DNA of 40,000 nucleotides from Terrabacter aerolatus (GCF_007991735.1 NZ_BJYX01000024.1:7727-47726); one strand, 5' to 3'; numbered from the stretch's first letter, positions 1,564 through 26,568 are shown. The notes: generated by a model from the sequence alone, not told the origin. Program-made: numbers and translations.

Positions 1564-3729
1564 TCAGCCCTCAGCCAACTCGCGAAGAATGGCCGAGGAA
1601 CCACGGGAGTTCACCTGGATGATTGGACGACTGCCGCGGTGCTCTTTGATGAAGTCTGTTGCTGCGTGCTTGGCGGAGGCGGCGACCATTACGAAGACGT
1701 CAGCGTTCGCGCTAAGGGCGGCCAACTGCTGGCTGCCGTCATGCTCGGATGTCGTACGCACATCGATGCCTGGCATCAATCGGCGCAGAATTTGTGCAGC
1801 ACGCGTTATGGCTGACTCTGTTAACGAATAGAGCACCACCACAGCGTCCTTCAAGTGTCGATAGGCGGCGCCCGGGTCGGCGTCCGAGTTCTGTACCTCG
1901 AAGTCGTCGGGCAGCGCCGTGGCCAACTCCTCGCCCACGAGGCGGAGCCCCTCAATGTCAGCAAGACTGAGGCTGGATCTCACCGGTCGGAGCACGTCGA
2001 GTGCGCGAAAGTACAGCCTGCTCTTGGCGGACAGGGCGAGAGCTTGGGGGGTTGTCGTGGCTGCCTGGAGAACGTCGACGGTCCAGCTGGCTGTGACAGC
2101 GGAGGTCGCGGCCTCGACGATCATCTCCGACCACTCCAGGGCGGAGGAGAGCAATGCGGCTCCGGGCGCAGACGCAGACAAGTACTCGAGGAGTGCGACC
2201 GTCTGCACCCGCACGCCGATGGAACTCCTTTCGCTAACGGCGAATCCGGCGAGCACTCGTTCGCACAGTTCGGCGCCGTCCGCTGCTGCAAAGACCGTCG
2301 AATGCGCAGCCATGAAGGCACCGCCGTGGTCTCCGAGGCGCGCCAATGCCTCCTCGTCCATGGACGCCAACCGGTCTGAGATGGTGGCATGATCCAGCGG
2401 ATGCCATTCAGACGTAACGCTGAGGTCTAGCGCCGCGTCCTTGAGGTCGTTCGCCTCCAAGGCATCGAACCAACCGAGCCATCCCAGGTTTCTTTGCGGA
2501 TTGATGAACCTGTCGAGCCACTCCAAGTCGGCGTGTACAACGACATCGTCCCCTGCTTCTTCGCGGAGTCCGCAGGCGTCGACGAAGGCCGCCACCTCCA
2601 CTGCGAGGCCTGGGTCCTCCAACTCCCGAATGCAGGAGAGCAGCAAAGCAGCCACGACCGGGGTCGGTGGCTCAGCGAGGCCTGTCATTACGGCGGCGGC
2701 GAACTCGCCCTCAGCGATGAAGCGGTGAAGTTCATCCTCCGTTGTGATTGTGGCCGTTGCCACTGTCTCCAACTGAACCGTTTCCGAGGTGGGCTTGGTT
2801 GCCGGAGCGTGCAGAAGTCGCAGGGAGTCAGCCAAGGCCTTCGACAGGGTCTTAGCCTCGTCGGCCAACCGGCCAAGGGTTGCGGGTGACCCTCCTCGAA
2901 GGGTTCTGAGCATGAACTCGGTGACCACTGCGGGTCTAGTCGAGGTGGCCCCGCTTGTCGCAAGTTCGCGGAATTGAGGCGGAATCTGCTGTGCCGCTTC
3001 GAGCAGTGCCGCGCCGTCGCCTGAGACGTCCGCGGACGCCAAATACCGTTCGTAGACTGCGGTTTGCAACAAACGCGTGATACCGATTGGGCGACGCAGT
3101 TGAAGGACGTGCTCGAGGTCTTGGTCGGCAAAGATCGCCGTCGTGTCGCCAAGCGCGGCATATACGCGCAAGCGGAGGAAAGCGAGGTTCGAATGGTCAA
3201 GATCAGCGGACGTCTCAAGTTCACGGAGACATTCGAGGGCGATCCGACCATCTCGAGCGCCGATGGCGTGTCCTAGGTCGTCGAGGATCTCCACCGTGGT
3301 TCGAGGTGCGTCGAATTCCGAGCGCGGGCGCTGCCACACCAACTTGGAGAGAACAAGGAGTGTTTGACGTACCTCATCACGGGAGGGAGCACTCCCGCGT
3401 GGGAGGACCTCAAAGCGCAGTGGTGGTACGTCGGTCAAGGCTAGTGCGCTGTCAAACGCATCCTGTGGGTACAGACGCCCCCGGCTTCTGGGCAGGTCAC
3501 TGAACGTCGGGCCAATCCAAGCGTCCAGGAGTGTGAGCAGTTCCTTCTTCTCCCGCAATGTAGGAGCAAACCCATACCAATAGAGTCTTCCGTTTGTCAC
3601 CCTCGGCAGGAACGCGATCTGTCCGCGCCCGATGGCATCTCGCCATCTCTCGATCGACGTCTCCTGCTCGGGCGGCAGGCGTGCGGGGTTGATGTCGTTG
3701 CCCACGCCGAAGAACTCGTCAATCTGCAT
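1564..3729 (-). CDS. hypothetical 721-aa protein, last gene of the dpd-like operon (possible DpdD equivalent, by elimination only)
   Basis: Long ORF with natural amino-acid composition. Its ATG at 3729 overlaps the PLD gene stop by 11 nt. The C-terminal ~90 aa (DAVVVLYSLTES...ADVFVMVAASAKHAATDFIKEHRGSRPIIQVNSRGSSAILREL) resemble the DUF2325-type pattern by eye. No catalytic motif recognised. Confidence 0.6.
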   Translation of the reverse strand: MQIDEFFGVGNDINPARLPPEQETSIERWRDAIGRGQIAFLPRVTNGRLYWYGFAPTLREKKELLTLLDAWIGPTFSDLPRSRGRLYPQDAFDSALALTDVPPLRFEVLPRGSAPSRDEVRQTLLVLSKLVWQRPRSEFDAPRTTVEILDDLGHAIGARDGRIALECLRELETSADLDHSNLAFLRLRVYAALGDTTAIFADQDLEHVLQLRRPIGITRLLQTAVYERYLASADVSGDGAALLEAAQQIPPQFRELATSGATSTRPAVVTEFMLRTLRGGSPATLGRLADEAKTLSKALADSLRLLHAPATKPTSETVQLETVATATITTEDELHRFIAEGEFAAAVMTGLAEPPTPVVAALLLSCIRELEDPGLAVEVAAFVDACGLREEAGDDVVVHADLEWLDRFINPQRNLGWLGWFDALEANDLKDAALDLSVTSEWHPLDHATISDRLASMDEEALARLGDHGGAFMAAHSTVFAAADGAELCERVLAGFAVSERSSIGVRVQTVALLEYLSASAPGAALLSSALEWSEMIVEAATSAVTASWTVDVLQAATTTPQALALSAKSRLYFRALDVLRPVRSSLSLADIEGLRLVGEELATALPDDFEVQNSDADPGAAYRHLKDAVVVLYSLTESAITRAAQILRRLMPGIDVRTTSEHDGSQQLAALSANADVFVMVAASAKHAATDFIKEHRGSRPIIQVNSRGSSAILRELAEG

Positions 3730-4243
3730 GACGGGCGCCTTCGTAAAGAGCGTTGTACGCGATGCGAGCCTCGGCGATGGCGTGAGGGTCGCGCGTCAAC
3801 GTCACGCCTTCCGCGTTGACCGCCTGTCCGAAGTAGGTGAAGTTCATAGATCCCTGGAGGTGGAATCGGTCGCCCAAGAGACCCTTGTCGTGAAGCTTTG
3901 AATGAATCTGCACTGTGGGTCTCGCCCCGAGGCCGCCAGCATTCTCGAGTCGCTGTCGGGCAACAACGTTGCTCTCAACATCGCGAGTGAGAACGCGCAC
4001 GTCGCTGCCCCGACGAGAAAGTTCAACCAAAGCCTCCGTCAGGCGAATCTTTCGCGAAGGGAGGCCGGGCAGGACGGTCTTGAACTGGCCGGCCGTGTTG
4101 TCGATGACGTCGATGTCGGAGATCCAAGGCGACAGGACCCACAACTGTTTGGACGGCACTAGCAGTTCTGTCACGAGAAGGTTCTGCATCAGGTCGTTGA
4201 GAATGCGGGTTTGTCCGTGGCCCGCGGTCGTGATCCGTCTCAT
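3719..4243 (-). CDS. dpdK: PLD/HKD-family nuclease (DpdK-like)
   Basis: 174 aa. HSKLHDKG...GSMNFT matches the HxK(x4)D...GSxN phospholipase-D/Nuc signature. Its ATG overlaps the upstream helicase stop (ATGA at 4240-4243). Confidence 0.8.
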   Translation of the reverse strand: MRRITTAGHGQTRILNDLMQNLLVTELLVPSKQLWVLSPWISDIDVIDNTAGQFKTVLPGLPSRKIRLTEALVELSRRGSDVRVLTRDVESNVVARQRLENAGGLGARPTVQIHSKLHDKGLLGDRFHLQGSMNFTYFGQAVNAEGVTLTRDPHAIAEARIAYNALYEGARHAD

Positions 4244-7200
4244 GCCGACACCTCAGCGAGTTCGAGGGCGACGACGACGTCGCCGTTCGCCCTATGATCG
4301 ATCTCCACAACACGCGGATAGACGTTGAGATATTCGGTCACGACAGGTTCGACACACGTGTCCACGAGCAGGTCCGCGAGATCCCCCGCCTGCTCGGGGG
4401 TCGCCAGAACCTGTACGGATCCTCGCCGAGATAGGGCGTGGCGGACGCGGTCTCGGTAGTCGCCGGTCAGCAGGAGCGGAGGATCGCCCGCGGCAGCGAG
4501 CGAGCGCAGGACCTCAGGTGCCGGGGGCAAGTTATCGGCAAAGGGATTCCACGCACTCAACTGTTCGGCACGGAGTTGCCAACCGCGGGGCCAGAGCAGG
4601 CTCTGGACCGCGTCCATGCGTCGGCGCTCGCGGTCTCCGCCTATAAGGACCAGACCAGGGTCCAGATCTGAGCGCGTACGCATCAAGTACGCCCAAGTCC
4701 GTGGCGGGATTTCGACACCGAGCCGCCGCTCTTCCGACTTCCACTCGGTCGTTATAGTCGACAAGGTTGTGTCCGTGGTTAATGTCGAACCGGGCCGCAG
4801 AACGCGGCTGGCCAGCGAGGATACAACCGACTGCTCGGCGCCGTAGATTCCCGACTGGCGAAGGGCATCCCGGATGCGTCCGAGCGTCTCGACGCGCGTC
4901 GCCTGGTCGGGCGCCACGCGAAATTCGTTGACGAGGCGGCCCCATGTTGGGTCGGTCGCCGTCAGGTCAATCACTCGTTGAAGGTGGCTGTCAACGAGTT
5001 CGTACGTACTCGGCTGCGTGGCTCGAAGGATCAGCCGAAGCAACCGCCGGGGATCCGGACGGACACGGGATGCAAGAGCCTCGATGAAGCCTCCGCCGCC
5101 GATCGAGGACTCGGTCAACCAAATCTCTCCCGTCCTGCGCCTTCCGTCCGAGTCATAACCTGGCTCGATGTCCACGATTACGCTCTCCGGATCGTGCTCC
5201 GGGCAGATCTGTCGAGCGGCCGCGAGGGTCGCATGTCCGAGAGTCGAAAGCGTGCGTTCCCGGATCCACCGATTGAACGCAACCGCTTCGGGAGCCCAGT
5301 ATTGCGATGCCAACGCGTCGAGGCGGGCGACGATGGCGGGGTTCCTCAGCGCCTCCTTGAGCCGAGCGCCCATCCGCGAGAGTGCTGCAGACTCCGACTC
5401 GACCACACCGGTGCCCCTAAACATGGCGTCTAGGGTTTCGTCGAGCCGACCGTCGAATGAGTCGTGAACGGCCGCGTACGCCTCTGCAACCGTGGTGTTG
5501 TCGCGGACTGCCGTGGTGAGCAACATCGCCTCCAAACACTGATGGAGCCAGTCGATGCGGAAACTGTTGAGGCAGTTGAGCAACTCGTTGTCGGTGAGCA
5601 ATACGTGCTTAAACCAAGCACTTCGCAGGCCGGGCAGGAGATCTGTCGGGACAAGAATCTCCTCCGGCAGGTCGACTTGGATGCGCAACCCGTCCACGTC
5701 GAAGGTGGAGCCCATCGCCGCAGGCTCGCCTTGAAGCGAGAACCGGGATCGCACGCGCTTATCGGTGCCGTCGTCGAGATTCAACGTGGCATCGGAGCTA
5801 ACAGCGGCGCGATGAACTTTCACGTGGGCGTTCTGAGCGTGCAGATAGAAGCGCGCGTCCTTGATGAGGCGCCCGAGTGGATCGGCCGCTGGCACGCGGA
5901 TGATCAGGCCAGTTCCGGTTTCGACGAACTGCGAGCGCCACTGCATTGTCGCATTTGACGAGTCCTTTACGTTCTGCGGCGGCAGTTCAACCAAAACCTG
6001 ATCGGGGCGGACGACGGTCGTTGTTGTCGGCGCGCCGTCGATGTCGATTGTGCACGGCTCCTCCACCGCGAAGAGCGGCAGAACCGTGCTGAGTTCAAGC
6101 ACCGATTCTGTGACATCGATCGGAACGGGGATCCAGTGACGGTGTTCGAGATTTCGAGTTGCGAATCGGCGTGAGACCCGACCGGGTGCGTATTCCCGGA
6201 GCATTTGCCCAAGCCCCATGGCATGGAGTTCGCGCTCGGTCTCCCGATCCGACTGGGGGGGAATGCTCACGTAGGTCTCGGGCAAGGCCAATTCGCTGAA
6301 GAGGTTCGTCGGGAAAAAGTCTGGTAGCGGGTTACCACCCATAAGATCCCGGAATCCATGCACTGTTTCGGGGTCTGCGACACCCCAGTTGTGGAGGAGA
6401 CGGCGACGTAAGGTCGGGATGGCCTGGAGTAGAAGCGGCCGCGGCGGATGCCAGAGGACTTCGTTGGCCTCCGAGTCGGACAGATCGAGTGCGTTCTGGA
6501 CCCAGATGCGCAGGCTCCGCTGACGGTCCGGGTCGCGGAGCGCGTCGTTCAGCACATCGACGGCCTTAAGTTGAGTTTCGCGACCCGGCCGGGCGAAAGT
6601 ATCAGCCGGCTTCTGCCCGAGAGCGGACCACGCAGTAGTTGTCTTGGGGATGCCGTACTGCCGCAGCTGGGTTGTGAGCCAATCAATCATTGCAATGGTG
6701 GCTTGCATGCGTAGAACTGCGCGGTTGCGGATCGGCAGAACTAGGTCGGGTAGCACCGGTTCAAACAAGCTGTCCCAGGCCTCGTACGTCGCGCGGTCGC
6801 GCCCGTAGTCGGACAGCACGACTGCCGTGTACGGGCGCATCGTGCGCTTGCGTCCGGCCCGACCCTTGCGCTGGAGGAAGGCTGCCACTCCTCGAGGCGC
6901 TTTGTGCTGGATGACGACACCGACGTCTGGATCGTCGAAGCCGACCTCTAGGGATGCTGTTGCGACGATCAGTTGACTGTCGGCGGTAACGCCGGAGTCC
7001 TGCGAGGTCGTTCGACTCACTCGTAGGCCCTCGCCCATGCTCGCGAACTTGTGGCCTACCGCGGTCGGTAGATCCCAAAGTTGACCTGCGCGACGTTGCA
7101 GCGTGACATCCCCGACGGCAGTGTTGGCGCGCAAAGACGCGAGAGGAGGTTTGAACGACTTCGGCTTTCCGAAGGCGTACTTCTGGCCCTCGGCGTCGAG

Positions 7201-8736
7201 AAGATATGAGAACAGACGGTTAGTGACGTCGAGGTCGTCGGTGAAGACGAAGGCCTTCGTGCCGAAGACGCCTGACGAGATCCGACTCGCTGGTTCATCC
7301 TGCGTGCGCGGCAGCAACATGGACGTTTGGATCGTGGTCGATAGCACCGATGCGCCGCTGGTTGGATCGCTGCGGAGCGCGAGCAAATACTCCGCCCCCT
7401 CGTACTCCAATTCCTCCGGTTCGGGCGTGATGCTCGTGACTAGGTCGTCGTCGACCCCGGTGAGATCCGCCATGTGACGGATCGGGTTGGACAGCGTCGC
7501 CGAAAGACCAACGAAGGTGATCGGAGCCTGAACGCTGTGGTGCCACCGGCGAAGGACCATTGCGGCTTGCGCCCCGGTGGTTCCGTCGTAGGTGTGTATC
7601 TCGTCCAGGAGCATCATCCGAGGCTTCCTGCCTGGCGGCGCGTCAATGCCCAAGGGTCGTGAGAGGTTCAGATCAGACAGACCTCGATTGAGCATCTCTG
7701 TCGTCACGAACAGCAGATCCGGGGGAGCGCTCTGCATGGTTTGCCGGGTCAGAACAACTTGGTCCTGCCCGAATGAGCGCCTGCACCTTGCGCACACCAG
7801 GCGCTCGACCCCGGCGTCGATGTCCTCGTTTCGCCAGATGAGTTCGCCCCCGCAGGGGGCGAAGCCATCGCCGGGGCAGCGCATCTGCGGCGAAGCCATG
7901 CCATGGGGCCGCTTGCCCCAACCCCGATAGGAAGCCCTCACGTTCTTGGCGTTGGTCGGTGTACCGCCGTAGAGAGCGCCGATCGTCATAGATCGTCCAG
8001 TGGAGCGCTTCCACAGATCGTTGAGTCGGCAGGCATGGGCGAACGCCGTGTCCAGTTGATCCTTCAGCAATTCGGTCCTGGGATAGACGGCTAGTGCGCG
8101 AGTCCACGCAGAAGGGTCGCTGATGCCCGCTAGGTAGCTGAATGCAGGGAGGTAGAACGCGTTCGTCTTTCCGCTTCCTGTGCCGGCACCGACCACCGTT
8201 GCTGTTGTGGTCTGACTCTGCAACGCCGTCAGGATGTGCCTCGTTGCGCGTACTTGGAACCCGCCGAGGAGGTCGTGCTCACCGTCGCGCTGGGTCATTA
8301 CCTCAAGGACACCGCGATACGCGTCGATAGGGCCGACGACCCCGTCGAGAGCCGTGGTCCAAGGGTGATCTCGCTTTGGGTAGAAGCGGGGGCGGCGTGC
8401 GTACCGGAAGTCGGAGATCAGGTTGGTTCCGGATTGCCAGGTCTGGCCGAGGAAGGTCTGTCGGAGCCGCGCCACCAAGCGGATGGTTTCGCCGTTGCGG
8501 GTACGCCAACGGCTGGGCGAAGCGCTGGAGTCGTGCAACAGTAACGCGCGTGTCGTCATCGCCTCGATGATGTCGTCGGCGCTCAAATCCCACTCGTGGC
8601 TGGAAGTGAGTTCATCGGCGATAACTTGGCGCAGTTCCTCGGTGCTGAAGCCACCGTCGACGATGCCCCAGCACAGGAGCGGATCCTCGAGGGACTCGAG
8701 TCGGTCAAGGATCCTGGTTAACAGCGCTGAGTTCAT
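4240..8736 (-). CDS. dpdJ: very large DExH-box superfamily-2 helicase (DpdJ-like)
   Basis: 1498 aa. Walker A GAGTGSGKTNAF, motif II LLDEIHTY, SAT-type GLSATLS, motif VI FLQRKGRAGR. A Cys4 insert (CPGDGFAPCGG...CARCRR) sits between motifs I and II. ATGA overlap with the upstream gene at 8733-8736. Confidence 0.85.
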   Translation of the reverse strand: MNSALLTRILDRLESLEDPLLCWGIVDGGFSTEELRQVIADELTSSHEWDLSADDIIEAMTTRALLLHDSSASPSRWRTRNGETIRLVARLRQTFLGQTWQSGTNLISDFRYARRPRFYPKRDHPWTTALDGVVGPIDAYRGVLEVMTQRDGEHDLLGGFQVRATRHILTALQSQTTTATVVGAGTGSGKTNAFYLPAFSYLAGISDPSAWTRALAVYPRTELLKDQLDTAFAHACRLNDLWKRSTGRSMTIGALYGGTPTNAKNVRASYRGWGKRPHGMASPQMRCPGDGFAPCGGELIWRNEDIDAGVERLVCARCRRSFGQDQVVLTRQTMQSAPPDLLFVTTEMLNRGLSDLNLSRPLGIDAPPGRKPRMMLLDEIHTYDGTTGAQAAMVLRRWHHSVQAPITFVGLSATLSNPIRHMADLTGVDDDLVTSITPEPEELEYEGAEYLLALRSDPTSGASVLSTTIQTSMLLPRTQDEPASRISSGVFGTKAFVFTDDLDVTNRLFSYLLDAEGQKYAFGKPKSFKPPLASLRANTAVGDVTLQRRAGQLWDLPTAVGHKFASMGEGLRVSRTTSQDSGVTADSQLIVATASLEVGFDDPDVGVVIQHKAPRGVAAFLQRKGRAGRKRTMRPYTAVVLSDYGRDRATYEAWDSLFEPVLPDLVLPIRNRAVLRMQATIAMIDWLTTQLRQYGIPKTTTAWSALGQKPADTFARPGRETQLKAVDVLNDALRDPDRQRSLRIWVQNALDLSDSEANEVLWHPPRPLLLQAIPTLRRRLLHNWGVADPETVHGFRDLMGGNPLPDFFPTNLFSELALPETYVSIPPQSDRETERELHAMGLGQMLREYAPGRVSRRFATRNLEHRHWIPVPIDVTESVLELSTVLPLFAVEEPCTIDIDGAPTTTTVVRPDQVLVELPPQNVKDSSNATMQWRSQFVETGTGLIIRVPAADPLGRLIKDARFYLHAQNAHVKVHRAAVSSDATLNLDDGTDKRVRSRFSLQGEPAAMGSTFDVDGLRIQVDLPEEILVPTDLLPGLRSAWFKHVLLTDNELLNCLNSFRIDWLHQCLEAMLLTTAVRDNTTVAEAYAAVHDSFDGRLDETLDAMFRGTGVVESESAALSRMGARLKEALRNPAIVARLDALASQYWAPEAVAFNRWIRERTLSTLGHATLAAARQICPEHDPESVIVDIEPGYDSDGRRRTGEIWLTESSIGGGGFIEALASRVRPDPRRLLRLILRATQPSTYELVDSHLQRVIDLTATDPTWGRLVNEFRVAPDQATRVETLGRIRDALRQSGIYGAEQSVVSSLASRVLRPGSTLTTDTTLSTITTEWKSEERRLGVEIPPRTWAYLMRTRSDLDPGLVLIGGDRERRRMDAVQSLLWPRGWQLRAEQLSAWNPFADNLPPAPEVLRSLAAAGDPPLLLTGDYRDRVRHALSRRGSVQVLATPEQAGDLADLLVDTCVEPVVTEYLNVYPRVVEIDHRANGDVVVALELAEVSA

Positions 8737-9443
8737 CGCAGGTGCACCTTGAATCGGGCGATGATGCCAAGAGCAGCGAGCTTCTTGAGACGTTCAGGCG
8801 TGAACCACGTCAGCGAGACGCCGCCCGGCTCCTGAGACCCCACGATGCCCTCAGCGATGTCGGCGTCAACCACCTCTCCGATTTGCTCGCCGCAGCGATG
8901 GATCGACTCCACGGCTGCTCGATGCTTCTTAACAGCACCACGGTCCGGGATGGGGCTGCTGGTGACTGCGAGCAACCGGGCCCGTGCGGTCTCCAGCGCA
9001 TCGCGGATCTCCTCGACGTCGACCCCGCCCTGCGCCAGTGCGTCGATGAGATCGACGTTGACCGCAGGCGGAGGCTGACTCACATACGTTTGCCACGTGC
9101 CCGCGACGAGAGCGCGTAGCTCTTTGGCGTACTTCTCGGCCGACCGGACACGCTCCTTGGCGAGGTCGAGATTCTGCTCCATTCCGAGCGCAGGCACTTC
9201 ACTCGCCAGAGCACGGAGACTCTGGGCTACCTGGGCCGCATCCTGTTCGTGCCCCGCCGGCAGTTCGACATCGAGTTGCATGACCTCACTCAGCGCGACG
9301 ATGAGCGCGGGCAACTCCGTCAACATTTGGGCGAGGCGTGCACTGAGATCTGCGAACTGGCCTGTCCGGACCTTGACCTGGTGTTCGTCGTTGGCGACTT
9401 CGGCGTGGGCACGCAGATCCTGGATCGTGCTGCGCAGGGTCAT
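8733..9443 (-). CDS. hypothetical protein, helical/coiled-coil-like (DpdI position)
   Basis: The ORF track starts at 9467. I prefer the ATG at 9443 (MTLRSTIQ...) because it forms an ATGA overlap with the upstream stop at 9440-9442. No motif recognised; the Dpd assignment is by synteny only. Confidence 0.6.
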   Translation of the reverse strand: MTLRSTIQDLRAHAEVANDEHQVKVRTGQFADLSARLAQMLTELPALIVALSEVMQLDVELPAGHEQDAAQVAQSLRALASEVPALGMEQNLDLAKERVRSAEKYAKELRALVAGTWQTYVSQPPPAVNVDLIDALAQGGVDVEEIRDALETARARLLAVTSSPIPDRGAVKKHRAAVESIHRCGEQIGEVVDADIAEGIVGSQEPGGVSLTWFTPERLKKLAALGIIARFKVHLR

Positions 9444-16010: not shown

Positions 16011-16011
16011 G

Positions 16012-19000: not shown

Positions 19001-19443
19001 CCGGAGCGCCAAATGCCGGTTGGGTCCTGCCAGAAGGCACGTTGCTCGGGAGGGAGGGTCACTCGCCGGAGGCTTTCGCGTGACACAGCCTCCCGATAGC
19101 GGTCCGAAGGCGCCTGGCCTGGCGTGTCGAAGTACTCAAGGACCAGAGCATCACCTTCCCGCGCAACGAGTTTCCCGGGCCCGAGGACGTTGTCGGAAGA
19201 AGTGAGCAGGTCACCTCCCGATAGCGACTTGCCCCGGCCCCCCTGCCTGGACGTGGAGGAGGCCTTGCTGACCCTTCTCGCTGGTGTGTGGTTCTCGACC
19301 GCTTCGCCATTCGCGTCTCGCGACCCTCGGCATCGTGGGAACTGCGAGCAACCCCAGAACGCCTTGCCGACGTTGGCGCCCTTCGATGCAAACTGCATGA
19401 CCATTGCCGCTTCGCAACGCGGACAACGAACGTGGTCAACCAC
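16012..19443 (-). CDS. dpdE: SNF2-family helicase with N-terminal topoisomerase-type C4 zinc ribbon (DpdE-like)
   Basis: 1143 aa. N-terminal CPRC...GCSQFPRC zinc ribbon. SNF2 motifs LLADEVGLGKTIEAG, LVLVDEAHNL, LMLSATP, and C-terminal RLEQRIGRCDR. GTG start at 19443, with GGAGGG 6 nt upstream. Confidence 0.85.
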   Translation of the reverse strand: MVDHVRCPRCEAAMVMQFASKGANVGKAFWGCSQFPRCRGSRDANGEAVENHTPARRVSKASSTSRQGGRGKSLSGGDLLTSSDNVLGPGKLVAREGDALVLEYFDTPGQAPSDRYREAVSRESLRRVTLPPEQRAFWQDPTGIWRSGRVIEITAYNDIHVRGHEWEGFIPEERLYVRWNKPLTDPVGFGEAGMLESPMLAELRLPFLRSILQQRSAAHGMRAVLSSCIELHAHQVETAWRVLQDPVQRYLLADEVGLGKTIEAGIIIRQMLLDNPSLRIQFILPPFLLDQWKRELTQKFRVQDFTQSHIRFSRDDEPSAWDAADLVLVDEAHNLARMSVSTNPDLALRFQRLREIALASPRLLMLSATPALHNEDAFLAMLKLLDPAVYADTNAEQLRSRLEARAGLGRVFLGLQPSLPGVLLKGRLTEIEASFPDDAEVRDLVARARESVATQDRDETASLIQALRTHIAEVYRVHRRMLRTRRTTALEGTYRVSGRRAPEPLPLESTLRDDVAEALDRWREQALASAEGNPAAMTLAGRAFAEAAAVSLDPSALQKWALERAAAPLAADEIAALKRIVQDVAYADRRATVSRPFADALSEVMTSNERAVVFCPTTEMATELAEELKDLFGATSVFCHVTTQSSQENDRSVRSFEAIHNAAVMVADSSAEEGRNLQFANVLVHLGLPGSANRLEQRIGRCDRWSPEGSGGWRSYVVSGHADDAYSGAWERILKDGFGIFDNSVASLQQAVDNATDEAWHILLQMGLDGVPSAVARVREMLDAEIERVREQDALDSLETSVDERSVYARIADVESDASTFANVSNNLLAANGAAGNLRFERRGHPATGLGGYESLGRLPGKQAQIPLIPASRLVRDFLPLKDHVGTFVREFALSSEDVHLYRYGDPFIDAVSDFLWHDDRGRAFGMWRSMPEWPREDTPLYRFDYAVEANPLDVPSSRDPRGELVTVSAGIDQLAFTRRADGIFPPIIVSVWMTASAQELTARTHLDALDAPYAKPGTTRAGGDYSLNRMRIQHAYDLIPAQHWGESWRSAERAAQHLVRSREDVRSAVERASAIADRDAATRLSQLRLRAMRTTGSELVRLHEELHREEVIARAMSAAVTAPSLRLDSTGLVVLSGRALTN

Positions 19444-19448
19444 TCAGA

Positions 19449-19480
19449 ACCCTCCGTACGACCGGCGACTCCGGGAGGGT
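19449..19480 (-). promoter_or_regulatory. candidate RNA hairpin sequestering the Shine-Dalgarno of the SNF2 (dpdE-like) gene
   Basis: On the minus-strand mRNA, ACCCUCC (19480-19474) can pair with GGAGGGU (19455-19449). That is a 7-bp stem with an 18-nt loop. The 3' arm is the GGAGGG ribosome-binding site 6 nt upstream of the GTG at 19443. Confidence 0.35.
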
Positions 19481-19517
19481 AACTCGGAAACCGGGTCCGT
19501 GGGGGCAAACGGCCGGT

Positions 19518-19535
19518 TAGGACACGGATGTCCTA
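19518..19535 (-). other. small hairpin overlapping the stop codon of the dpdB-like gene
   Basis: TAGGACA-cgga-TGTCCTA: a perfect 7-bp inverted repeat with a 4-nt loop, covering the TAG stop (19533-19535). It lies at the only intergenic gap of the operon. Confidence 0.3.
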
Positions 19536-20636
19536 CCTCAGCGCCTGTAGGAGGAAGTTGGTCAGGAGTCGGATGTCGCTGGGTGTGTTTTGGAGGCCGT
19601 TCCACCGGCGCACGTCGTCCGCAGCGAACTGCCAGGTGCCAGTGGTCCAAGCGCAGTGTGGGACCAGGCGAGCAAGCCTGCCCTCCAGATCGAGAGCATC
19701 CAGTTCGGTCTCGTCGTACCCCTCAGTCATAGCATCCATGACGTACCCCAGAGACTGAACTCCGACGCCATGGGTGAGGCGGGACTTGCGGGGTTCGGCC
19801 TGCCACGCGTCGTAGAACGTGGATTGCACAGCACTCCAGAAGCGGTCCAGATGCCCGACGATCTTGTCAACGTTCCCGGATCCGTCGTCAGGGTTCCGGT
19901 ATTGGTATAGAGCGCCGTCGGAGAGGCTGTTCTCGATCATCCTGAGGACGCTGTTGTCCTTAATCTCTCCGTCAGGTTGGGTGGGCGTCGAGATTCGACT
20001 GGCAAAGGGGTGCCCAACTTGCTTGCGAGGGCCAGAATTTAGCCGCGTCATGATCTGCGCGGGTAATTGCTTTCGCGCATACGCAGGCGGCAGGTGGCCC
20101 GTAGTATTTGGCAGCAGTTCGTGGATCAATCCCTTGGGAAGTGGCTTGGTGTTATTGACCAGGATGAATTGCGACCGCTGCTCTTCTTCGCCGTCGGCGA
20201 TGAATCCAACCGCCGCGAGAGGAAATTCTGCCAGGTCGGCATCGCGAATGGCTGCGCTGCGCTGCTGTCCATCGACGAGCCACGCTGGGCGTGATTCCTC
20301 GGACGCTGCCTCGTCGACCGGAATTATGAGTTCGCCCACGGTCGCATAATCAACGGCCGACTCATGGCTAATTTCGAAGCGGACTCTGGCGTCAAAGGCA
20401 AATACCACGGCGTTAGGAAGCAGGGCCCCGTCGGATTCAAGATAGCGTCGAATCGCCCGAATATGGCTGATCACCTCGGGACGCTGATAGCCCTTGAGGT
20501 CGGCTTCATCGCGATGGACCCGCGACACCGTAGCGAAGTCATGAATGCGCTTCCCGTCCACGCCAAATGAGTAGATATGCTTCCGGCCCTGTCGAATCCG
20601 CAGGGCAGGAAGGCGCAAATCGTATCGGTCAGCCAT
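19533..20636 (-). CDS. dpdB: DGQHR-domain ParB/DndB-like protein (DpdB-like)
   Basis: 367 aa. GYQRP...WLVDGQQRS motifs of the DGQHR / ParB-like nuclease superfamily. Its ATG overlaps the dpdA-like stop by 8 nt, with GGAGGA upstream. Confidence 0.8.
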   Translation of the reverse strand: MADRYDLRLPALRIRQGRKHIYSFGVDGKRIHDFATVSRVHRDEADLKGYQRPEVISHIRAIRRYLESDGALLPNAVVFAFDARVRFEISHESAVDYATVGELIIPVDEAASEESRPAWLVDGQQRSAAIRDADLAEFPLAAVGFIADGEEEQRSQFILVNNTKPLPKGLIHELLPNTTGHLPPAYARKQLPAQIMTRLNSGPRKQVGHPFASRISTPTQPDGEIKDNSVLRMIENSLSDGALYQYRNPDDGSGNVDKIVGHLDRFWSAVQSTFYDAWQAEPRKSRLTHGVGVQSLGYVMDAMTEGYDETELDALDLEGRLARLVPHCAWTTGTWQFAADDVRRWNGLQNTPSDIRLLTNFLLQALR

Positions 20637-21867
20637 GGGATTCCTCCGCTAAGTCCTCGTGGGCAAGTCGATGCATCTTATCGGCGAGCACCGACAGGTT
20701 GTGAAACCCGCGCCTCTTGTTGCGTTCGGTGCCTCGAAATATGGCTACCTCGATGCCAAGCTTCTGACAGACAGAGCATGAGCATGCGGTCCAGGGGGCA
20801 GCGCGAAGAGTCCGTTCATATTGAGCGCGATAGGTCTTCTTGCTCTGGCAGAGTCGCTCGTAAGAAGACAGGGCCTCCAAGGCCTCCTGCAGGCGCGTCT
20901 CTGAACCGTCGAACGCCCGCAGCGAGCGTAGGCATTCGCGTTCGCCCTTGAGGGCGTCACTTTGGGACACCCGTCCGGCAAGAATCGCGCGCCGGAGCGT
21001 CGGGTTGCCGTCCACTTGGGGGACTCTCAGTGCCACGAATGCCTCGTCGCGAGTGTGATAATTGAGGCGGTCATCCATGAAAGCTTGCCGAAACGCGGAA
21101 GTGCTATCAAAGCTGGTTACGCCGAGTTCCGCAAAGCGTGCCATCGACTCAACCCGGGTGATTCCAAGCAGGTGAAGTTCGCATTCGGGCTTGCGCACCG
21201 CTTCGATCGCTTCGAGGCATGCGAGTATCTCCCGCGTCTTGAGCGGCACCATGCCGCCGAGCGCAATACGGCGAAATCCGAATTCCTGAAGGTTTCTCAC
21301 GCTGTCCGCATAACTAGCAGGGCTCCACCCTTGAGCCGCGCCGACAGGTTCGATATCTGCTCCGCGCTCCGCGACCCGGGTGATGAACTCTTCTGCAAGT
21401 CGCAGGGTCAAACGTCGGCGCTCGGCCCAGGCGGGGTCTACTGTTGAAAAATCCGCGGCAGGTTGGTAGCCGAAGATGATGTGGTCCACGCTTACTCCGG
21501 CATCAAAGCCGCATCCTTCGTAGAAATCGAGAGTCTCGTCCACGGTGACAGGAGGAACAGGTTCGCTGGCGTAATTGAACGCACCGTTGTCACCCAGAGT
21601 TTTAACCTCACTAGGAAGGCGAAAAAACTTCTTCAAGCCCAGGCGGTAAAGGCGTGCTCTCTGGGCTGCTGTGTACTTGCCCGCGCCCTTAATCGAACCG
21701 TCCACTATGGATTTGCTTACGAGGATTCCGTCGTAAGGTGCCCGAGCAAGGACTTCATGGGCGTATCGATCGTCACGCTGTCGAATTCGGTGGGCAGCGT
21801 ATTCGTCGTGCAGGAAGTCGTACGTGGGGCTGACCAGGTCCTGGCTGTCGGGGAAGAAGAACTTCAC
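20629..21867 (-). CDS. dpdA: tRNA-guanine transglycosylase-family paralogue (DpdA-like DNA 7-deazaguanine transglycosylase)
   Basis: 412 aa. TGT-like elements: LGDNGAF, RIALGGMVPL (compare TGT AIGGL), GVTSFDSTSAF (compare TGT FD[CS]), and the zinc site CSCSVC...RGFHNL (CxCxxC...H). GTG start overlaps the upstream stop (GTGA at 21864-21867). Context is two DGQHR genes, not tRNA-modification genes. Confidence 0.85.
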   Translation of the reverse strand: MKFFFPDSQDLVSPTYDFLHDEYAAHRIRQRDDRYAHEVLARAPYDGILVSKSIVDGSIKGAGKYTAAQRARLYRLGLKKFFRLPSEVKTLGDNGAFNYASEPVPPVTVDETLDFYEGCGFDAGVSVDHIIFGYQPAADFSTVDPAWAERRRLTLRLAEEFITRVAERGADIEPVGAAQGWSPASYADSVRNLQEFGFRRIALGGMVPLKTREILACLEAIEAVRKPECELHLLGITRVESMARFAELGVTSFDSTSAFRQAFMDDRLNYHTRDEAFVALRVPQVDGNPTLRRAILAGRVSQSDALKGERECLRSLRAFDGSETRLQEALEALSSYERLCQSKKTYRAQYERTLRAAPWTACSCSVCQKLGIEVAIFRGTERNKRRGFHNLSVLADKMHRLAHEDLAEESHG

Positions 21868-23000
21868 TTGCGATGGGTCCGTTCCGCTAGATAGGTGCGG
21901 ATGAGGAAGTTTGACAAGGCGCTGATGTGCCGGGGCGTGTTTTGCAAGTCATTCCATGCGAGTCCAAGTGCGTCCCAGGAACCCCCTGTCCAAGCGCAGT
22001 GAATAGCGATGAGCCTGAGTTCCGTTGCAGCTGCCGCTCTAGCTTTCGGATCGTCGTCGCGCACGTGTGTCATGACGCGGTCCATGAGTCGTCCCATAGC
22101 GCGAATGCCAACGCCATGCATCAGACGACTCTCAGTCGCAGGTTTACCCCATGCGTCATGGAAGACATCGTGGACTGCTCCCCAATATGCGATGAGCAGA
22201 CGCCGGATGCCTTCCGTATCGGTCGTGCCAGTCGCGATGTTGCGATATGGGAAAAGGACGCCAGAAGGAGACTCGATGGACTCGCGGACGGCCTCGATCA
22301 GGCTTGTGTCTGTGACAAAGGTCGACCTTTTGGCGTCGGGGTCCGTCGAAGCGCGCCGAATGATTCCCCGGAACGGCGACTCCGGATCTTGATTGAGCAT
22401 GTCCACAAGCGCAGATGGCAACTGCCGTGTTGCCATACGGCCCGAAGGGACGCGAGTGATCTCAGGTAGCAGTTCGGTCACCAGTCCGGAGGGAAGCGGT
22501 TGAACCGTGTTCACCCTCAAGAACTGTTCGCGTTGTAGTTCAAGGGTGGGCGCAACGAATCCAGCGACAGGCACTGGCAGGCGCCGGTTCTTCGTGCGAG
22601 ACAACGCGAGGCTTCGCTGTTGGCCGTCTACGATCCACGCTGGTCGAGGACCATCGCTATCTCTACTGATCGGAATCTCCAATGTTCCGGAGACTGCCAG
22701 GCCGTCGCTCGTCGAGGGTCCACGACTCGACCTCCAGCGAACCTCCTGCGGGAGGGCGAGGATCAGGCCGTTGGGAAACAGTGGGGCCTCGGAGTCGAGG
22801 TACTCCTGAATCTGCTTGACGTGCTTCTTCTTCTCCGGCCTCTGGTAGCCAATCAGCTTGCCGGCCTCATCGCGGCTGATGCGTGCGACGTCGGCAACAA
22901 GGTCGACTTCCTCAGCGGCGAGTGTGAACAGGTAGAGGGGGGTGTCATCACTTTGGAGCACCTTCAGTGCTCGCCGTTCCAGCCATTCAATGCCGCTCAT
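21864..23000 (-). CDS. second DGQHR-domain ParB/DndB-like protein (full-length paralogue of the DpdB-like gene)
   Basis: GYQRP...WIVDGQQRS. It aligns over its whole length with the 19533..20636 product, for example QFLRVNTVQPLPSGLVTELLP vs QFILVNNTKPLPKGLIHELLP, and CAWTGGSW...LQNTPRHISALSNFL vs CAWTTGTW...LQNTPSDIRLLTNFL. I prefer the ATG at 23000 (MSGIEWL) because of its ATGA overlap with the upstream stop; the track start at 23048 would overlap by 52 nt. Confidence 0.8.
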   Translation of the reverse strand: MSGIEWLERRALKVLQSDDTPLYLFTLAAEEVDLVADVARISRDEAGKLIGYQRPEKKKHVKQIQEYLDSEAPLFPNGLILALPQEVRWRSSRGPSTSDGLAVSGTLEIPISRDSDGPRPAWIVDGQQRSLALSRTKNRRLPVPVAGFVAPTLELQREQFLRVNTVQPLPSGLVTELLPEITRVPSGRMATRQLPSALVDMLNQDPESPFRGIIRRASTDPDAKRSTFVTDTSLIEAVRESIESPSGVLFPYRNIATGTTDTEGIRRLLIAYWGAVHDVFHDAWGKPATESRLMHGVGIRAMGRLMDRVMTHVRDDDPKARAAAATELRLIAIHCAWTGGSWDALGLAWNDLQNTPRHISALSNFLIRTYLAERTHRK

Positions 23001-23866
23001 GAGGTGAGGGCCTCCTCGAATAGTCGCGTGAACCGGCGCTGCTCGCACGCTATGCCGGAGTTGCGCAGATTCCTTAAAGCAACTGTCTTGGGCAACTTCG
23101 GATTCAGTCCTCGCATCTGGTCGATCATTTGCTTGATGGCGTGATCAGAGACGGGCTTGCGGTCGTAGCGTTCCTGCTGCTGAGCGCCCAGGGCCCAGGT
23201 AGCCCAGTTGCGGTGGACCTCGGGTGCGGCTGGCATCTTGCCATCGGCGATCTCTAACCAACGGATCGCCATGCGTGCGTTCAAACTCGTGATCGTGCCG
23301 CCGAGTGCTCCTCGGAGGTTCCGATCCGATCGGATCCGGAGACTCGCCGGCGTGTCCGACGCCCCGCCGAAGACAACCGTCGATTGAGGATCGAGCGCTT
23401 GGAGGTCGTCCGTCATGGCCCGCGCGTACGACTCCGACAAGACCCATATAGAAGGGGCGTCGGCTCGAGGGCCAGCGGCGTGGGCGAGTTGCTTCCACCA
23501 AACGCTCGCATCAGGAGTGGCCTGCACCACGGAGTCACGGTGGCCGGTGGCGAACGTTGCTGCATAGGGCGGCGCGACGTCATCGACCGGGCGCAGGCCC
23601 AAGCCCGCAGACGCGACGAAGACCTCCGGTTGGAATCCAGTGCTCCGAGCGGTAGCGGCCAGTCGCTTGGCTTGAGTCCAACTCTCCCCCGCGTAGAGGT
23701 CGAGCAGACGCGTCGTCGGCCTTGTCGCACGGAGGCGGCCCACCCAGTCATCGGCGCGTTCCTTGACGGTGCCGGTTGGTAGCGTACGGGCCATCAGGTC
23801 GTGGTGCGGAGCACCCGTCTTGCGGTCGGTACAGGTGACCACGATCGTCAGTTTTTGGCGCGCCAT
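22997..23866 (-). CDS. dpdC: DpdC-like candidate (first gene of the operon)
   Basis: 289 aa. N-terminal TIVVTCTDRK...LYAGESW...VFVASAGLGLRPVDDVAPPYAATF resembles the DUF6884-type layout (C-[ST]-x-x-K, LY, SA-x-x-GL, PY) by eye. It is the remaining modification-module gene next to the dpdA/B-like genes. Assignment is tentative. Confidence 0.5.
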   Translation of the reverse strand: MARQKLTIVVTCTDRKTGAPHHDLMARTLPTGTVKERADDWVGRLRATRPTTRLLDLYAGESWTQAKRLAATARSTGFQPEVFVASAGLGLRPVDDVAPPYAATFATGHRDSVVQATPDASVWWKQLAHAAGPRADAPSIWVLSESYARAMTDDLQALDPQSTVVFGGASDTPASLRIRSDRNLRGALGGTITSLNARMAIRWLEIADGKMPAAPEVHRNWATWALGAQQQERYDRKPVSDHAIKQMIDQMRGLNPKLPKTVALRNLRNSGIACEQRRFTRLFEEALTS

Positions 23867-23967
23867 GACCCCTCGGATACAAAACTACGGCTTGGTTGTC
23901 GGTACTCTAGCGTGTAGTTTCGTCGGACGGTGCGCGTACGCACAGCCGGTATCGAGAGGTGGATGTT
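23867..23967. promoter_or_regulatory. divergent control region between the dpd operon and the preQ0 operon
   Basis: About 100-bp, comparatively A/T-rich spacer between divergent start codons. It contains the inverted repeat AAACTAC (23882-23888) / GTAGTTT (23914-23920) and GTGCG-cgta-CGCAC (23930-23943). GAGAGGTGG lies 6 nt upstream of the queC ATG. Promoters themselves are not identified. Confidence 0.4.
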
Positions 23968-24666
23968 ATGGGCCGCAAGGCAGTAGTGCTGCTCAGCGGG
24001 GGGCTGGACTCAACGACGGTCCTCGCGGTCGCGAAGGATCAGGGGTTCGAGCCGTACGCAATCAGCTTCCGCTACGGCCAACGGCATGTCGTTGAGCTCG
24101 AGGCAGCGCGCCGGGTGGCGCAGGCCGCCGGGGTGGAACGCCACGTCGTGTGCGACATCGACCTGCGAATATTCGGAGGGTCGGCGCTCACGGCCGACGT
24201 CGACGTGCCGAAGCATCAGTCGGCGGAGGAGTTGTCAGAGGACGACATCCCCATCACCTACGTCCCGGCACGCAACACCGTCTTCCTCTCCCTCGCACTG
24301 GCGTACGCGGAGGTCGTCGGCGCGACCGACATCTTCATCGGTGTGAATGCCCTCGACTACTCCGGATACCCCGACTGTCGGCCCGAGTACATAGTTTCGT
24401 ACGAACGCATGGCCAACCTGGCCACTCGCGCCGGTGTCGAAGGCAATGAACTGAAAATCCACACTCCCCTGATCAGCCTCACCAAGGCTGAAACCGTTGA
24501 GTTGGGAACGCGCCTGAGGGTCGACTACTCCCTGACCCTGTCGTGCTACGACCCCGATGACCAGGGGCGGGCGTGCGGTCACTGCGACTCATGTTTGTTG
24601 CGCTTGCGCGGCTTCGCTGACGCCGGACTCGTTGACCCGGTCATTTATCAGGAGGCGACTGCGTGA
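23968..24666 (+). CDS. queC: 7-cyano-7-deazaguanine (preQ0) synthase QueC
   Basis: N-terminal PP-loop [14 protein letters not shown] and C-terminal Cys cluster CY...[10 protein letters not shown]. The ATG at 23968 is preferred over the track's GTG at 23959 because of RBS spacing. Confidence 0.9.
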
Positions 24667-25298
24667 GTTACAAGATCAAGGAAATCTTCTACACCCTTCA
24701 AGGCGAGGGCACGCATGCCGGCCGCCCCGCCGTCTTCTGTCGCTTCACGTCCTGCAATCTGTGGACAGGCCGTGAAGCCGATCGTGAGAGAGCGATCTGC
24801 AAGTTCTGCGACACCGACTTTGTTGGCACGGACGGCGAAGGGGGCGGCAAGTTTCATGACGCCGAGGCGTTGGCGACCGCAGTGGCGTCTAAATGGCCGG
24901 TGAACGGCGGAGGGCGACCGATGGTTGTGTGCACGGGCGGCGAACCCTTACTGCAGCTGGATGCCGACGCCGTGGATGCCCTCCATGCACGTGGCTTCTA
25001 TGTTGCAGTCGAGACGAACGGGACTGTCACGCCGCCCCCCGGTATCGACTGGCTCTGCGTGAGCCCCAAGATCGGGTCCGAACTACTCGTCACGAAGGGC
25101 CACGAGCTCAAATTTGTCGTCCCTCAGGGCGGCGTCGATCCGACCACGTTCGAAGACCTCGAGTTCGAGAGTTACCGAGTGCAGCCGATGGATGGCCCGG
25201 ATGTGGCGGCGAACACCGAACTGGCCGTGCAGTTTTGCCTCGACCACCCGCTATGGCAGCTCAGTCTGCAGACGCACAAGCAGCTAGGAATACCGTGA
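24663..25298 (+). CDS. queE: 7-carboxy-7-deazaguanine synthase QueE (radical SAM)
   Basis: [16 protein letters not shown]...[29 protein letters not shown] carries the Cx14CxxC cluster variant known from Burkholderia-type QueE. GTGA overlap with the queC stop. Confidence 0.9.
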
Positions 25299-25663
25299 CC
25301 CACAACAGTGAGATCTATAGGGAGTTTACGTTTGAGGCGGCTCACAGGTTGCCGAACGTGCCCGAGGGCCACAAGTGTGCACGCCTGCACGGACACTCGT
25401 ACCTAGCGGCGGTCCACGTCGCTGGTCCCGTCGGCGAGGAGACGGGGTGGGTGCAGGACTTCGGCGAGATTAAGGCGGCATTCAAGCCCCTCGAGGAGCA
25501 ACTTGATCATCACTTCCTCAATGAGGTCCGGGGCCTCGAGAACCCGACGAGCGAGGTGCTTGCCAAGTGGATCTGGGATCGCCTCGTAGTGGCTCTTCCG
25601 AACTTGACCGAGGTGAGGGTGCGCGAGACGTGCACCTCGGGTTGCATTTACCGAGGAGAGTAG
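25295..25663 (+). CDS. queD: 6-carboxy-5,6,7,8-tetrahydropterin synthase QueD
   Basis: [27 protein letters not shown]...LDHHFLNEV is the PTPS/QueD His/Cys signature. The track ORF (from 24893) overlaps queE in another frame. The real start is the GTG at 25295, overlapping the queE TGA (GTGA). Confidence 0.9.
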
Positions 25664-25667
25664 AAAC

Positions 25668-26453
25668 GTGGCGCTGCCAGACATTCAGGACCAGGTTGAC
25701 GAGCGAGGAATCTCCCTCGACAACGTCGGCATTGACGGAGTCCGGATGCCAAGCACGTTCTCAGACGGGGTGACCACCCAGGCTGGAGTGGCGTCGTTTG
25801 AAGTAGTGGTGCAACTGCCCGAGGACCGGCGCGGCACCCACATGAGTCGCATGGTCGAGCTCGTACACGAGCACCTAGAGGTCATCGACCCGCGCGAGTT
25901 GCCCACAGTCCTGAAGCAGGCAGCCTCCCGCCTTGACGTTGGTGTGGCCACCATCGGCATTGGTCTGCCGTTCGCGACGCGCGTGTTGTCACCCGTGTCC
26001 GGGCGAGAGGCCTGGCAACCGAGTGACTTGCGTTTGCGGGCAACGCTGCGTGGGGACGTTTTCGAACTCGTAACATCTGTTACTAGCGAAGTGACCAGCC
26101 TGTGCCCATGTAGTAAGGCGATCAGCGATTACGGCGCACACAATCAACGCAGCGTTGTAACCGTGGATGTGCACGGACACGACGACTGTCCGTACCCCGT
26201 TTCGGTCGCCCGTCTGGTGGAACTGATTCGCCTGACGGGTTCTTGCCCCGTCTTTCCGATCGTGAAGCGACCGGACGAGCGCTCTATCACCATGACGGCC
26301 TTCGAGCACGCCGCATTTGTAGAGGACATGGCGCGCGACCTCTCTGGGCTGCTAAGGAAGCAGCGAGTGCGTCATAGCGTCCGAGTGCGGAATCTGGAGA
26401 GCATTCACAGTCACGATGCCATCGCCTCGTTGTCGTGGCGCCCCGAAGGGTAG
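25668..26453 (+). CDS. folE2: GTP cyclohydrolase I type 2 (FolE2 / GCYH-IB)
   Basis: 261 aa. LPDIQD...GISLDNVGIDGVRMP N-terminus, RRGTHMSR and SLCPCSK motifs typical of the FolE2/MptA family. Starts 4 nt after the queD stop. Confidence 0.85.
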   Translation: MALPDIQDQVDERGISLDNVGIDGVRMPSTFSDGVTTQAGVASFEVVVQLPEDRRGTHMSRMVELVHEHLEVIDPRELPTVLKQAASRLDVGVATIGIGLPFATRVLSPVSGREAWQPSDLRLRATLRGDVFELVTSVTSEVTSLCPCSKAISDYGAHNQRSVVTVDVHGHDDCPYPVSVARLVELIRLTGSCPVFPIVKRPDERSITMTAFEHAAFVEDMARDLSGLLRKQRVRHSVRVRNLESIHSHDAIASLSWRPEG

Positions 26454-26568
26454 AACCGTTCGCTCATCAAACTGAGACAAAGTTCGCCGGTCAGGGCTTC
26501 AACATGAACTGACTGTCGGCGTCTTATGTCATCATCTCTAGTGGGTCAAGAGGCGCGACCGTTACCCA

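Follow-up and report, generated by a model that had tools for sequence, protein, structure and literature searches.

We analysed a 40,000-nt stretch of the Terrabacter aerolatus genome (NZ_BJYX01000024.1:7727-47726), called the window below and numbered from its first nucleotide. It very probably carries an intact restriction-modification island of the Dpd type (7-deazapurine in DNA), judging from profile-model matches, gene order and conserved residues. Twelve minus-strand genes run from 23866 down to 1564, and four plus-strand genes for synthesis of the precursor preQ0 diverge from them. The features are as follows, with lengths in amino acids (aa), model scores in bits and curated cut-offs in brackets.

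22997-23866, minus: dpdC, predicted dPreQ0 (2'-deoxy-preQ0) to dADG (2'-deoxy-7-amido-7-deazaguanosine) converting enzyme, 289 aa (PADLOC PDLC02817 336.7 bits, 2-294/299)
21864-23000, minus: dpdB, upstream type, 378 aa (NF041060 396.6 bits, cut-off 300; PADLOC DpdB 474.5 bits; ATG 23000 after GAGGAGG)
20629-21867, minus: dpdA, DNA-guanine transglycosylase, 412 aa (NF041059 599.3 bits, cut-off 200; PDB 7UI4 E 9.5e-122)
19533-20636, minus: dpdB, downstream type, 367 aa (NF041060 500 bits, cut-off 300; DGQQR at 122)
19444-19532, minus: 89-nt gap between modification and restriction genes, candidate internal promoter (from the sequence)
16012-19443, minus: dpdE, SNF2 helicase, 1143 aa (NF041062 1154.7 bits, cut-off 500; Pfam SNF2-rel_dom, Helicase_C)
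13413-16010, minus: dpdF, RecQ-like helicase, 865 aa (NF041063 648.8 bits, cut-off 550)
12493-13416, minus: dpdG, 307 aa (NF041064 151.9 bits, cut-off 80)
9440-12496, minus: dpdH, P-loop NTPase, ~1018 aa (NF041065 682.2 bits, cut-off 450)
8733-9443, minus: putative remote DpdI homologue, 236 aa (NF041066 DpdI 17.5 bits, cut-off 150, E 0.003, colinear from residue 1)
4240-8736, minus: dpdJ, YprA-like DExH helicase, 1498 aa (NF041067 1799.8 bits, cut-off 800, 1-1481/1482)
3719-4243, minus: dpdK, phospholipase-D-family (PLD) nuclease, 174 aa (NF041068 184.9 bits, cut-off 100; Pfam PLDc_2)
1564-3729, minus: dpdD, last gene of the restriction operon, 721 aa (NF041061 609.8 bits, cut-off 300, 2-704/704)
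23867-23958, no strand: dpdC/queC divergent candidate control region (inverted repeat AACTAC-N25-GTAGTT at 23883-23919, central TAGAGT)
23959-24666, plus: queC, 7-cyano-7-deazaguanine synthase (TIGR00364 215 bits, cut-off 150.3; Pfam QueC 259.6 bits)
24663-25298, plus: queE, radical-SAM 7-carboxy-7-deazaguanine synthase, Cx14CxxC type (TIGR04508 335 bits, cut-off 240)
25295-25663, plus: queD, 6-carboxytetrahydropterin synthase (TIGR03367 103.9 bits, cut-off 89.25)
25668-26453, plus: folE2, GTP cyclohydrolase IB (NF010200 216.3 bits, cut-off 215; Pfam GCHY-1 229 bits)

A preliminary description of this DNA had noted a chain of twelve overlapping minus-strand genes interrupted by a single 89-nt gap. 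Listing the open reading frames (ORFs) and refining their start codons reproduced it, with one 1-nt gap besides. From dpdC to dpdD the junctions are overlaps of 4, 4 and 8 nt, the 89-nt gap, the 1-nt gap, and overlaps of 4, 4, 4, 4, 4 and 11 nt; every junction is thus a 4-11-nt overlap or a 1-nt gap, with 19444-19532 the sole exception. In three cases the longest ORF begins too far upstream (dpdH at 12904, upstream dpdB at 23048, dpdI at 9467). We corrected these starts from model coordinates, the lengths of deposited proteins (378 and 236 aa) and Shine-Dalgarno context to GTG 12496, ATG 23000 and ATG 9443, respectively, each of which creates an ATGA or GTGA overlap. The dpdH start, preceded by GGAGGAAAG, overlaps the dpdG stop by 4 nt, and the NF041065 model begins at residue 146 of the long dpdH ORF. 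The GTG of dpdE at 19443 lies 6 nt behind the ribosome-binding site GGAGGG. On the plus strand the likelier queC start is ATG 23968, and the queD start was refined to GTG 25295, the TIGR03367 match beginning at residue 140 of its ORF.

NCBIfam equivalog models name 10 of the 12 minus-strand genes at full length and a PADLOC model names DpdC, an outcome that the preliminary description had expected of searches against Pfam, NCBIfam and PADLOC. The best PADLOC matches were Dpd-specific for every other component as well, the DpdI position excepted. The earlier reading of the locus, a methylase-free Dpd island that brings along a preQ0 operon of its own, is likewise supported by the curated equivalog models, and none of the sequence results that the preliminary description had listed as refuting was seen. 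That description had given the gene order as C-B'-A-B-E-F-G-H-I-J-K-X; the order stands, and the gene left as X is DpdD, the canonical last gene, as on the Enterobacter cloacae plasmid pPOL9A. Three window proteins are 100% identical to T. aerolatus entries. The deposited T. aerolatus annotation calls at least three of the proteins here hypothetical (the DpdI-like protein, the upstream DpdB and a flanking DUF3293 protein). The island is an ordinary representative of an already described, common family, one more complete example of a system catalogued in thousands of genomes, and it matters little beyond correct annotation.

The gene at the DpdI position needs separate treatment. Its 236-aa product matched nothing in NCBIfam, Pfam or PADLOC at default thresholds; at a relaxed threshold DpdI was the sole NCBIfam match. 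Position and length fit, the gene lying between dpdH and dpdJ and its product being colinear with a model of 239 positions. It is 100% identical to T. aerolatus GCM10009868_26590, annotated as hypothetical, and belongs to a narrow actinobacterial family of >40 homologues, mostly of 236 aa, whose named members are almost all hypothetical too. A profile built from 24 homologues retrieved 43 cluster representatives from 1.8 billion proteins, most of them 231-241 aa long. Nine of the ten representatives tested, mostly distant ones, matched the DpdI model, with up to 62.7 bits over 6-239/239; none reached the cut-off, and scores climbed as the representatives moved further from the query family. 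The product, assigned earlier as "I", appears to be a remote DpdI homologue, connected only through intermediates, and falls short of the curated DpdI model.

DpdC was recognised by its full-length PADLOC match and by its similarity to the pPOL9A gene that precedes dpdA (BLASTP E 2.5e-13); its conversion activity is predicted. It is the fastest-changing gene of the island, only 39-68% identical to its relatives and everywhere far more diverged than its neighbours.

Several observations weigh against the identification of an intact Dpd system. NCBIfam gave no match to DpdC even at E up to 10, and Pfam DUF6884 hit it non-significantly (E 0.13); the DpdI-like protein scored 17.5 bits against a curated cut-off of 150; and a scan for E. 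coli-type promoters found none, the consensus fitting a 62-70% GC (guanine plus cytosine) actinobacterium poorly. The strong divergence of DpdI and DpdC and the mosaic relation of the modules to those of relatives (see below), would also suit a decaying remnant, its genes recognisable and its function lost. We consider such decay improbable. Every model match is full length, there are no frameshifts or internal stops, catalytic residues and motifs are intact and the tight translational coupling has been kept. Even the DpdI-like family is conserved in length, at mostly 236 aa across its homologues.

Of the restriction genes, each of dpdD, E, F, G, H, J and K exceeds its NCBIfam equivalog cut-off, at full length and in canonical order. 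Pfam and motif evidence bears out the domain calls made earlier for the island, namely a TGT-family protein, two DGQHR proteins (both reading DGQQR), SNF2, RecQ-like and DExH helicases, a P-loop protein and one HKD nuclease. The NF041062 model begins at DpdE residue 77 and leaves an N-terminal zinc ribbon uncovered; residues 5-40 form a topoisomerase-type C4 ribbon (CPRC...CSQFPRC) followed by a low-complexity linker. Zn_ribbon_Top1 scores 26.6 bits there, below its gathering threshold of 32, and the ribbon is kept in 14 related actinobacterial loci. The helicase core of DpdF matches recQ TIGR01389 at 165.8 bits, with GTGKS at 187 and DEAH at 292. DpdH has the Walker A sequence GKSGTGKS and weak AAA_22/AAA_16 matches in Pfam; DpdJ has Walker A GSGKT at 187 and DEIH at 378; DpdK carries a single HKD motif (HxKx4D), HDKGLLGD, at residue 118. 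DpdD was matched by 13 PADLOC DpdD models and has no Pfam domain. The 89-nt gap in front of dpdE is matched by gaps of 83-105 nt in six further co-oriented loci, which also have a TANNNT hexamer ~35 nt ahead of the start codon; because this spacing and hexamer are kept, the gap suggests a separate promoter for the restriction operon.

The helicase and PLD genes might instead form a DISARM-, BREX- or Druantia-type module that merely adjoins the deazaguanine genes, its methyltransferase encoded elsewhere. DpdE, DpdJ and DpdK do have secondary matches to DrmD (122.9 bits), BrxH, DruE and DrmC, and helicase ancestry is known to be common to these families. The Dpd models nonetheless score about 10-fold higher (DpdE 1154.7 against 122.9; DpdJ 1799.8), and all DISARM matches lie far below their cut-offs (DrmD 122.9 against 610). 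Domain scans covering positions 1-27200 found no methyltransferase domain in the twelve products or the flanks, as the preliminary description had also stated, and E-F-G-H-I-J-K-D is the canonical Dpd restriction operon. We regard a methylase-dependent system as very unlikely.

DpdA is tied to its family by active-site residues as well as by score. With residue roles taken from PMC10164549 (the deposited 7UI4 chain carries a 20-residue tag offset), Salmonella Asp95, Phe99, Asp130, Leu236, Asp256 and Phe265 correspond to D93, F97, D128, L234, D254 and F263 of the window protein. The catalytic aspartates (Asp95, Asp256) and the base-binding Asp130 are thus all present, as is the zinc site (CxCxxC...H) at C362/C364/C367/H389. 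Salmonella His181 is replaced by Gln179. We rejected this as a sign of altered substrate: Gln is the rule, found in 82 of 83 related loci, single-architecture relatives included, and His occurs only in the enterobacterial one. The preliminary description had named a housekeeping tRNA enzyme as the alternative identity for this protein. A tRNA-guanine transglycosylase paralogue for queuosine- or archaeosine-type modification, beside an unrelated helicase system, would account for membership in the TGT superfamily (Pfam TGT 26.9 bits) and for preQ0 genes that are the same as those for queuosine. It is scarcely credible, given a DpdA equivalog score of 599 bits against 22.6 for tgt_general (cut-off 47.6) and 23.2 for archaeal TgtA (cut-off 350), a DNA-guanine transglycosylase (7UI4) as the closest solved structure, and helicase, PLD and NTPase genes that match Dpd equivalogs and are translationally coupled in one chain.

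The source of preQ0 lies next door. The divergent queC-queE-queD-folE2 set reported earlier was found with GTP cyclohydrolase, QueD, QueE and QueC adjacent and all four above curated cut-offs; the genes overlap one another or sit 4 nt apart, and 92 nt separate queC from dpdC. Actinomycetes also use folE/queD/queE/queC homologues for deazapurine metabolites. A cluster for a toyocamycin- or sangivamycin-like metabolite would fit that use, and DpdC-type nitrile-to-amide chemistry resembles the toyocamycin-to-sangivamycin conversion, yet we give this idea next to no weight: NCBIfam and Pfam scans detected no phosphoribosyltransferase, nitrile hydratase subunits or tailoring enzymes, the divergent partners DpdC, DpdB and DpdA act on DNA in the characterised system (PMC10164549), and the pairing with Dpd restriction genes is kept in 80 loci.

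In that characterised system DpdA with the DpdB ATPase puts preQ0 into DNA, DpdC independently turns preQ0-DNA into ADG-DNA, and DpdD-K confer the restriction phenotype, as shown genetically (PMC10164549). By analogy, the FolE2, QueD, QueE and QueC of the window would convert GTP to preQ0, and DpdA, aided by ATP hydrolysis by DpdB, would put preQ0 in place of selected guanines in the double-stranded DNA of the chromosome. The eight genes dpdE-F-G-H-I-J-K-D, probably transcribed from a promoter of their own within the 89-nt gap, would supply three helicases (SNF2, RecQ-like, YprA-like), a P-loop NTPase split as DpdH and DpdI, the PLD nuclease and proteins of unknown fold, which are jointly thought to detect and degrade unmarked DNA.

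The two DpdB proteins, both with DGQQR, overlap dpdA on either side, the downstream copy by 8 nt and the upstream copy by 4 nt. They are 37% identical to each other; Enterobacter DpdB shares 45% identity with the downstream copy and 36.5% with the upstream one. A neighbour-joining tree separated one group holding the downstream DpdB of actinobacteria and Agrobacterium, with Enterobacter DpdB, from a second holding the upstream DpdB of actinobacteria and Agrobacterium. The downstream protein is on these grounds the orthologue of the characterised DpdB ATPase. Among 81 sequences of each type, both paralogues share one residue in 72 columns (conservation of at least 95%), GYQRPE, DGQQR and QRxQF among them, and another 26 columns are fixed to differing residues. 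Because of the tree grouping and the column conservation in both copies, the duplication is evidently old and position-specific, with both copies under selection. The preliminary description had taken the duplicated dpdB for a variant architecture, which does not hold: it is present in 80 of 80 actinobacterial loci and on three alphaproteobacterial plasmids, so the C-B-A-B order, on these maps, is not unusual. Nor is the duplication new as a count, extra dpdB copies having been tallied in a 2025 survey of 2335 unique dpd islands (333 from Actinomycetota), which recorded 801 additional copies (PMC12235509). Our literature search found no study on the role of the second copy, and the upstream paralogue is absent from the sole reconstituted Dpd system, that of Salmonella Montevideo.

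Across 81 sequences dpdC and queC lie 83-115 nt apart, and the stretch between them has the conserved core AACT...TA.AGT...AGTT. The strict inverted repeat occurs in 31 of the 81 intergenic regions, against 32 matches across the 1.67 Mb of loci. We therefore rejected it as a universal feature; only the shorter AACT...AGTT core is general. Each arm reads TAGTTT toward its own gene, and the arms may be two back-to-back -10 boxes or an operator. No obvious regulator gene was seen in the island besides the DndB-like DpdB proteins.

The upstream DpdB is most likely either an additional subunit of the ATPase that loads DpdA or a regulator of the DndB kind. We tentatively raise a broader proposal, with the odds rather against it: that C-B-A-B is an old, widespread form of Dpd in which the upstream protein has a distinct, non-redundant job, either as a heteromeric ATPase subunit that sets the choice of target site or as a DndB-like repressor acting on the dpdC/queC inverted repeat. 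If so, a repressor would balance preQ0 supply against modification, and the C-A-B reconstitution from Salmonella would not reveal the job of the upstream protein.

Relatives were collected by scanning with the upstream DpdB in one genome per species and keeping the best 80 of 533 as loci; these span Nocardioides, Kribbella, Terrabacter, Knoellia, Microbacterium, Gordonia, Rhodococcus, Mycobacterium, Streptomyces, Saccharothrix and Amycolatopsis. Kineococcus was neither among them nor in the list of the top 120 homologues. The island of Kineococcus radiotolerans is reportedly the one experimentally validated actinobacterial dpd island. A tblastn map placed dpdC-dpdB(up)-dpdA-dpdB(down) beside divergent preQ0 genes in all 80. 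Most have the full queC-queE-queD-folE2 set, folE2 being undetected in ~16. The restriction genes, at 26-95% identity, lie downstream and co-oriented, inverted, or upstream. The modification and preQ0 module is thus rigidly kept and the restriction module shuffled or exchanged, which fits modular evolution of self-mark and effector.

Compared with these relatives the window is a mosaic. For its queC, queE, queD and upstream dpdB the nearest relatives are Nocardioides sp. PD653-B2 and Knoellia locipacati (87-91%), to whose loci dpdA and the downstream dpdB are only 70% identical. Against Terrabacter sp. Ter38 the pattern is reversed, with queC/E/D and the upstream dpdB at 75-79% and dpdA and the downstream dpdB at 80-82%. 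That genome is the closest for folE2 and for dpdA through dpdG (80-90%) and has the right flank in common too, identity running from 80% in DpdA to 90% in DpdG; Nocardioides caeni matches dpdE-dpdG at 88-90%. With Terrabacter and N. caeni taken together, dpdA through dpdG find their closest counterparts at 80-95%. Apparent recombination breakpoints thus fall inside the conserved module, 19533-26453.

The GC fraction is ~0.58-0.65 from position 1 to ~27000 and 0.67-0.73 in the adjoining sequence (0.62 for the island, 0.70 for the flank), and the island was probably acquired horizontally. No tRNA gene lies within the 40,000-nt window, so no tRNA-linked integration site could be identified; the left end of the island falls outside the window. 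Terminator-like sites were at chance level in our scan, which is uninformative for a high-GC actinobacterium. At the left edge, two overlapping plus-strand ORFs (33-674 and 671-1543; 213 and 290 aa) converge on dpdD in the part of lowest GC (0.575). They had no significant Pfam, NCBIfam or PADLOC match and no counterpart in the 80 related loci, and may be further island cargo.

Just past folE2 there is a SAM-IV (S-adenosylmethionine) riboswitch at 26544-26661 on the plus strand (RF00634, full length, 44.4 bits, gathering threshold 38), 37 nt before a plus-strand ORF. It occurs at the same place in Terrabacter sp. Ter38 (locus 6351-6468) and in none of five other related loci scanned. Behind it, 26698-27192 (plus) encodes a 164-aa cREC_REC (cyclic-phosphate processing receiver) protein. 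The overlapping gene at 27189-29222 (plus) encodes a 677-aa protein whose sole domain is an N-terminal DUF3293, with 8 homologues in 5.8 billion proteins, mostly from Terrabacter. SAM riboswitches normally control sulfur or methionine genes, and the cREC_REC and DUF3293 genes are odd cargo for one. A minus-strand ORF at 26524-27087 (187 aa) was rejected as an island gene: it matched no family and overlaps both the riboswitch and the conserved plus-strand gene. Its tblastn conservation in Ter38 reflects the opposite strand, and it is probably not a gene. In Terrabacter sp. Root181 the dpd core is present, and a 10-kb flank lacks the riboswitch/cREC/DUF3293 stretch (window ~26.5-29.5 kb), matching the window only from ~34.2 kb on; what lies right of the island therefore differs between Terrabacter genomes.

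Other defence systems share parts with the island. DpdB is a ParB-like protein of the DGQHR/DndB family (Pfam DndB), as in Dnd systems; the window has no dndACDE or methylase, and Dnd scores were far below cut-offs. DpdE, DpdJ and DpdK are related by descent to BrxHII/DrmD, DrmA and DrmC of BREX and DISARM, for which, too, the DISARM scores were far below cut-offs. The YprA-like family context of DpdJ and the helicase ancestry shared across these defence families have been described (bioRxiv 10.1101/2025.09.15.676423).

Three alphaproteobacterial plasmids (Agrobacterium vitis CP146243, Caulobacter sp. S6 and Sinorhizobium americanum) have the order hypothetical(C)-dpdB-dpdA-dpdB, with both copies annotated as DpdB. 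Their preQ0 genes, unlike those of the window, lie downstream in the same orientation, lack folE2 and are accompanied by a VUT/YhhQ transporter gene, and their restriction genes are elsewhere or absent nearby. The A. vitis plasmid also has a third DGQHR gene, within 20018-24092, whose very divergent product shares ~20% identity with either DpdB; the gene adjoins others annotated as HNH endonuclease and restriction endonuclease, between IS5 copies and dpdD. The modification module is built differently in dpd-like clusters on plasmids of Paenibacillus sp. 37 (11158-15132) and Allocoleopsis PCC 7113 (753-2849), where DpdA, at ~690 aa, exceeds the usual length by ~280 aa and none of the adjacent genes is annotated as DpdB. 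The Paenibacillus cluster adds a second, short queuine tRNA-ribosyltransferase gene.

On Enterobacter cloacae pPOL9A (NZ_CP086409.1, Prokaryotic Genome Annotation Pipeline) a gene at the dpdC position, dpdA and dpdB are followed by a convergent dpdE-F-G-H-(hypothetical)-J-K-D. The restriction order E-F-G-H-(I)-J-K-D is that of the window, down to a DpdI-position gene called hypothetical; the dpdC-like gene upstream of dpdA is unnamed, and DpdA and the downstream DpdB are 47% and 45% identical to ours. The plasmid differs in having only one dpdB, in its convergent operons and in the lack of preQ0 genes next to them, and its restriction proteins are only 25-35% identical.

The Dpd system of Salmonella Montevideo (7UI4, PMC10164549) has all eleven protein families in common with the window, DpdI in the form of a putative remote homologue; the zinc site of DpdA, its active-site aspartates and its base-stacking residues are shared too, and neither has a methyltransferase. 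The window has its restriction operon behind the modification genes and on their strand, whereas the two are convergent in the Enterobacter cluster related to that of Salmonella. The window further differs from Salmonella in its full folE2-queD-queE-queC set, in Gln179 of DpdA for His181, in the N-terminal zinc ribbon added to DpdE, in a very diverged putative DpdI, and in the second, upstream-type DpdB between dpdC and dpdA. Because the two DpdB copies are position-specific paralogues in both Actinomycetota and Alphaproteobacteria, the Salmonella model system lacks a component found in many Dpd islands.

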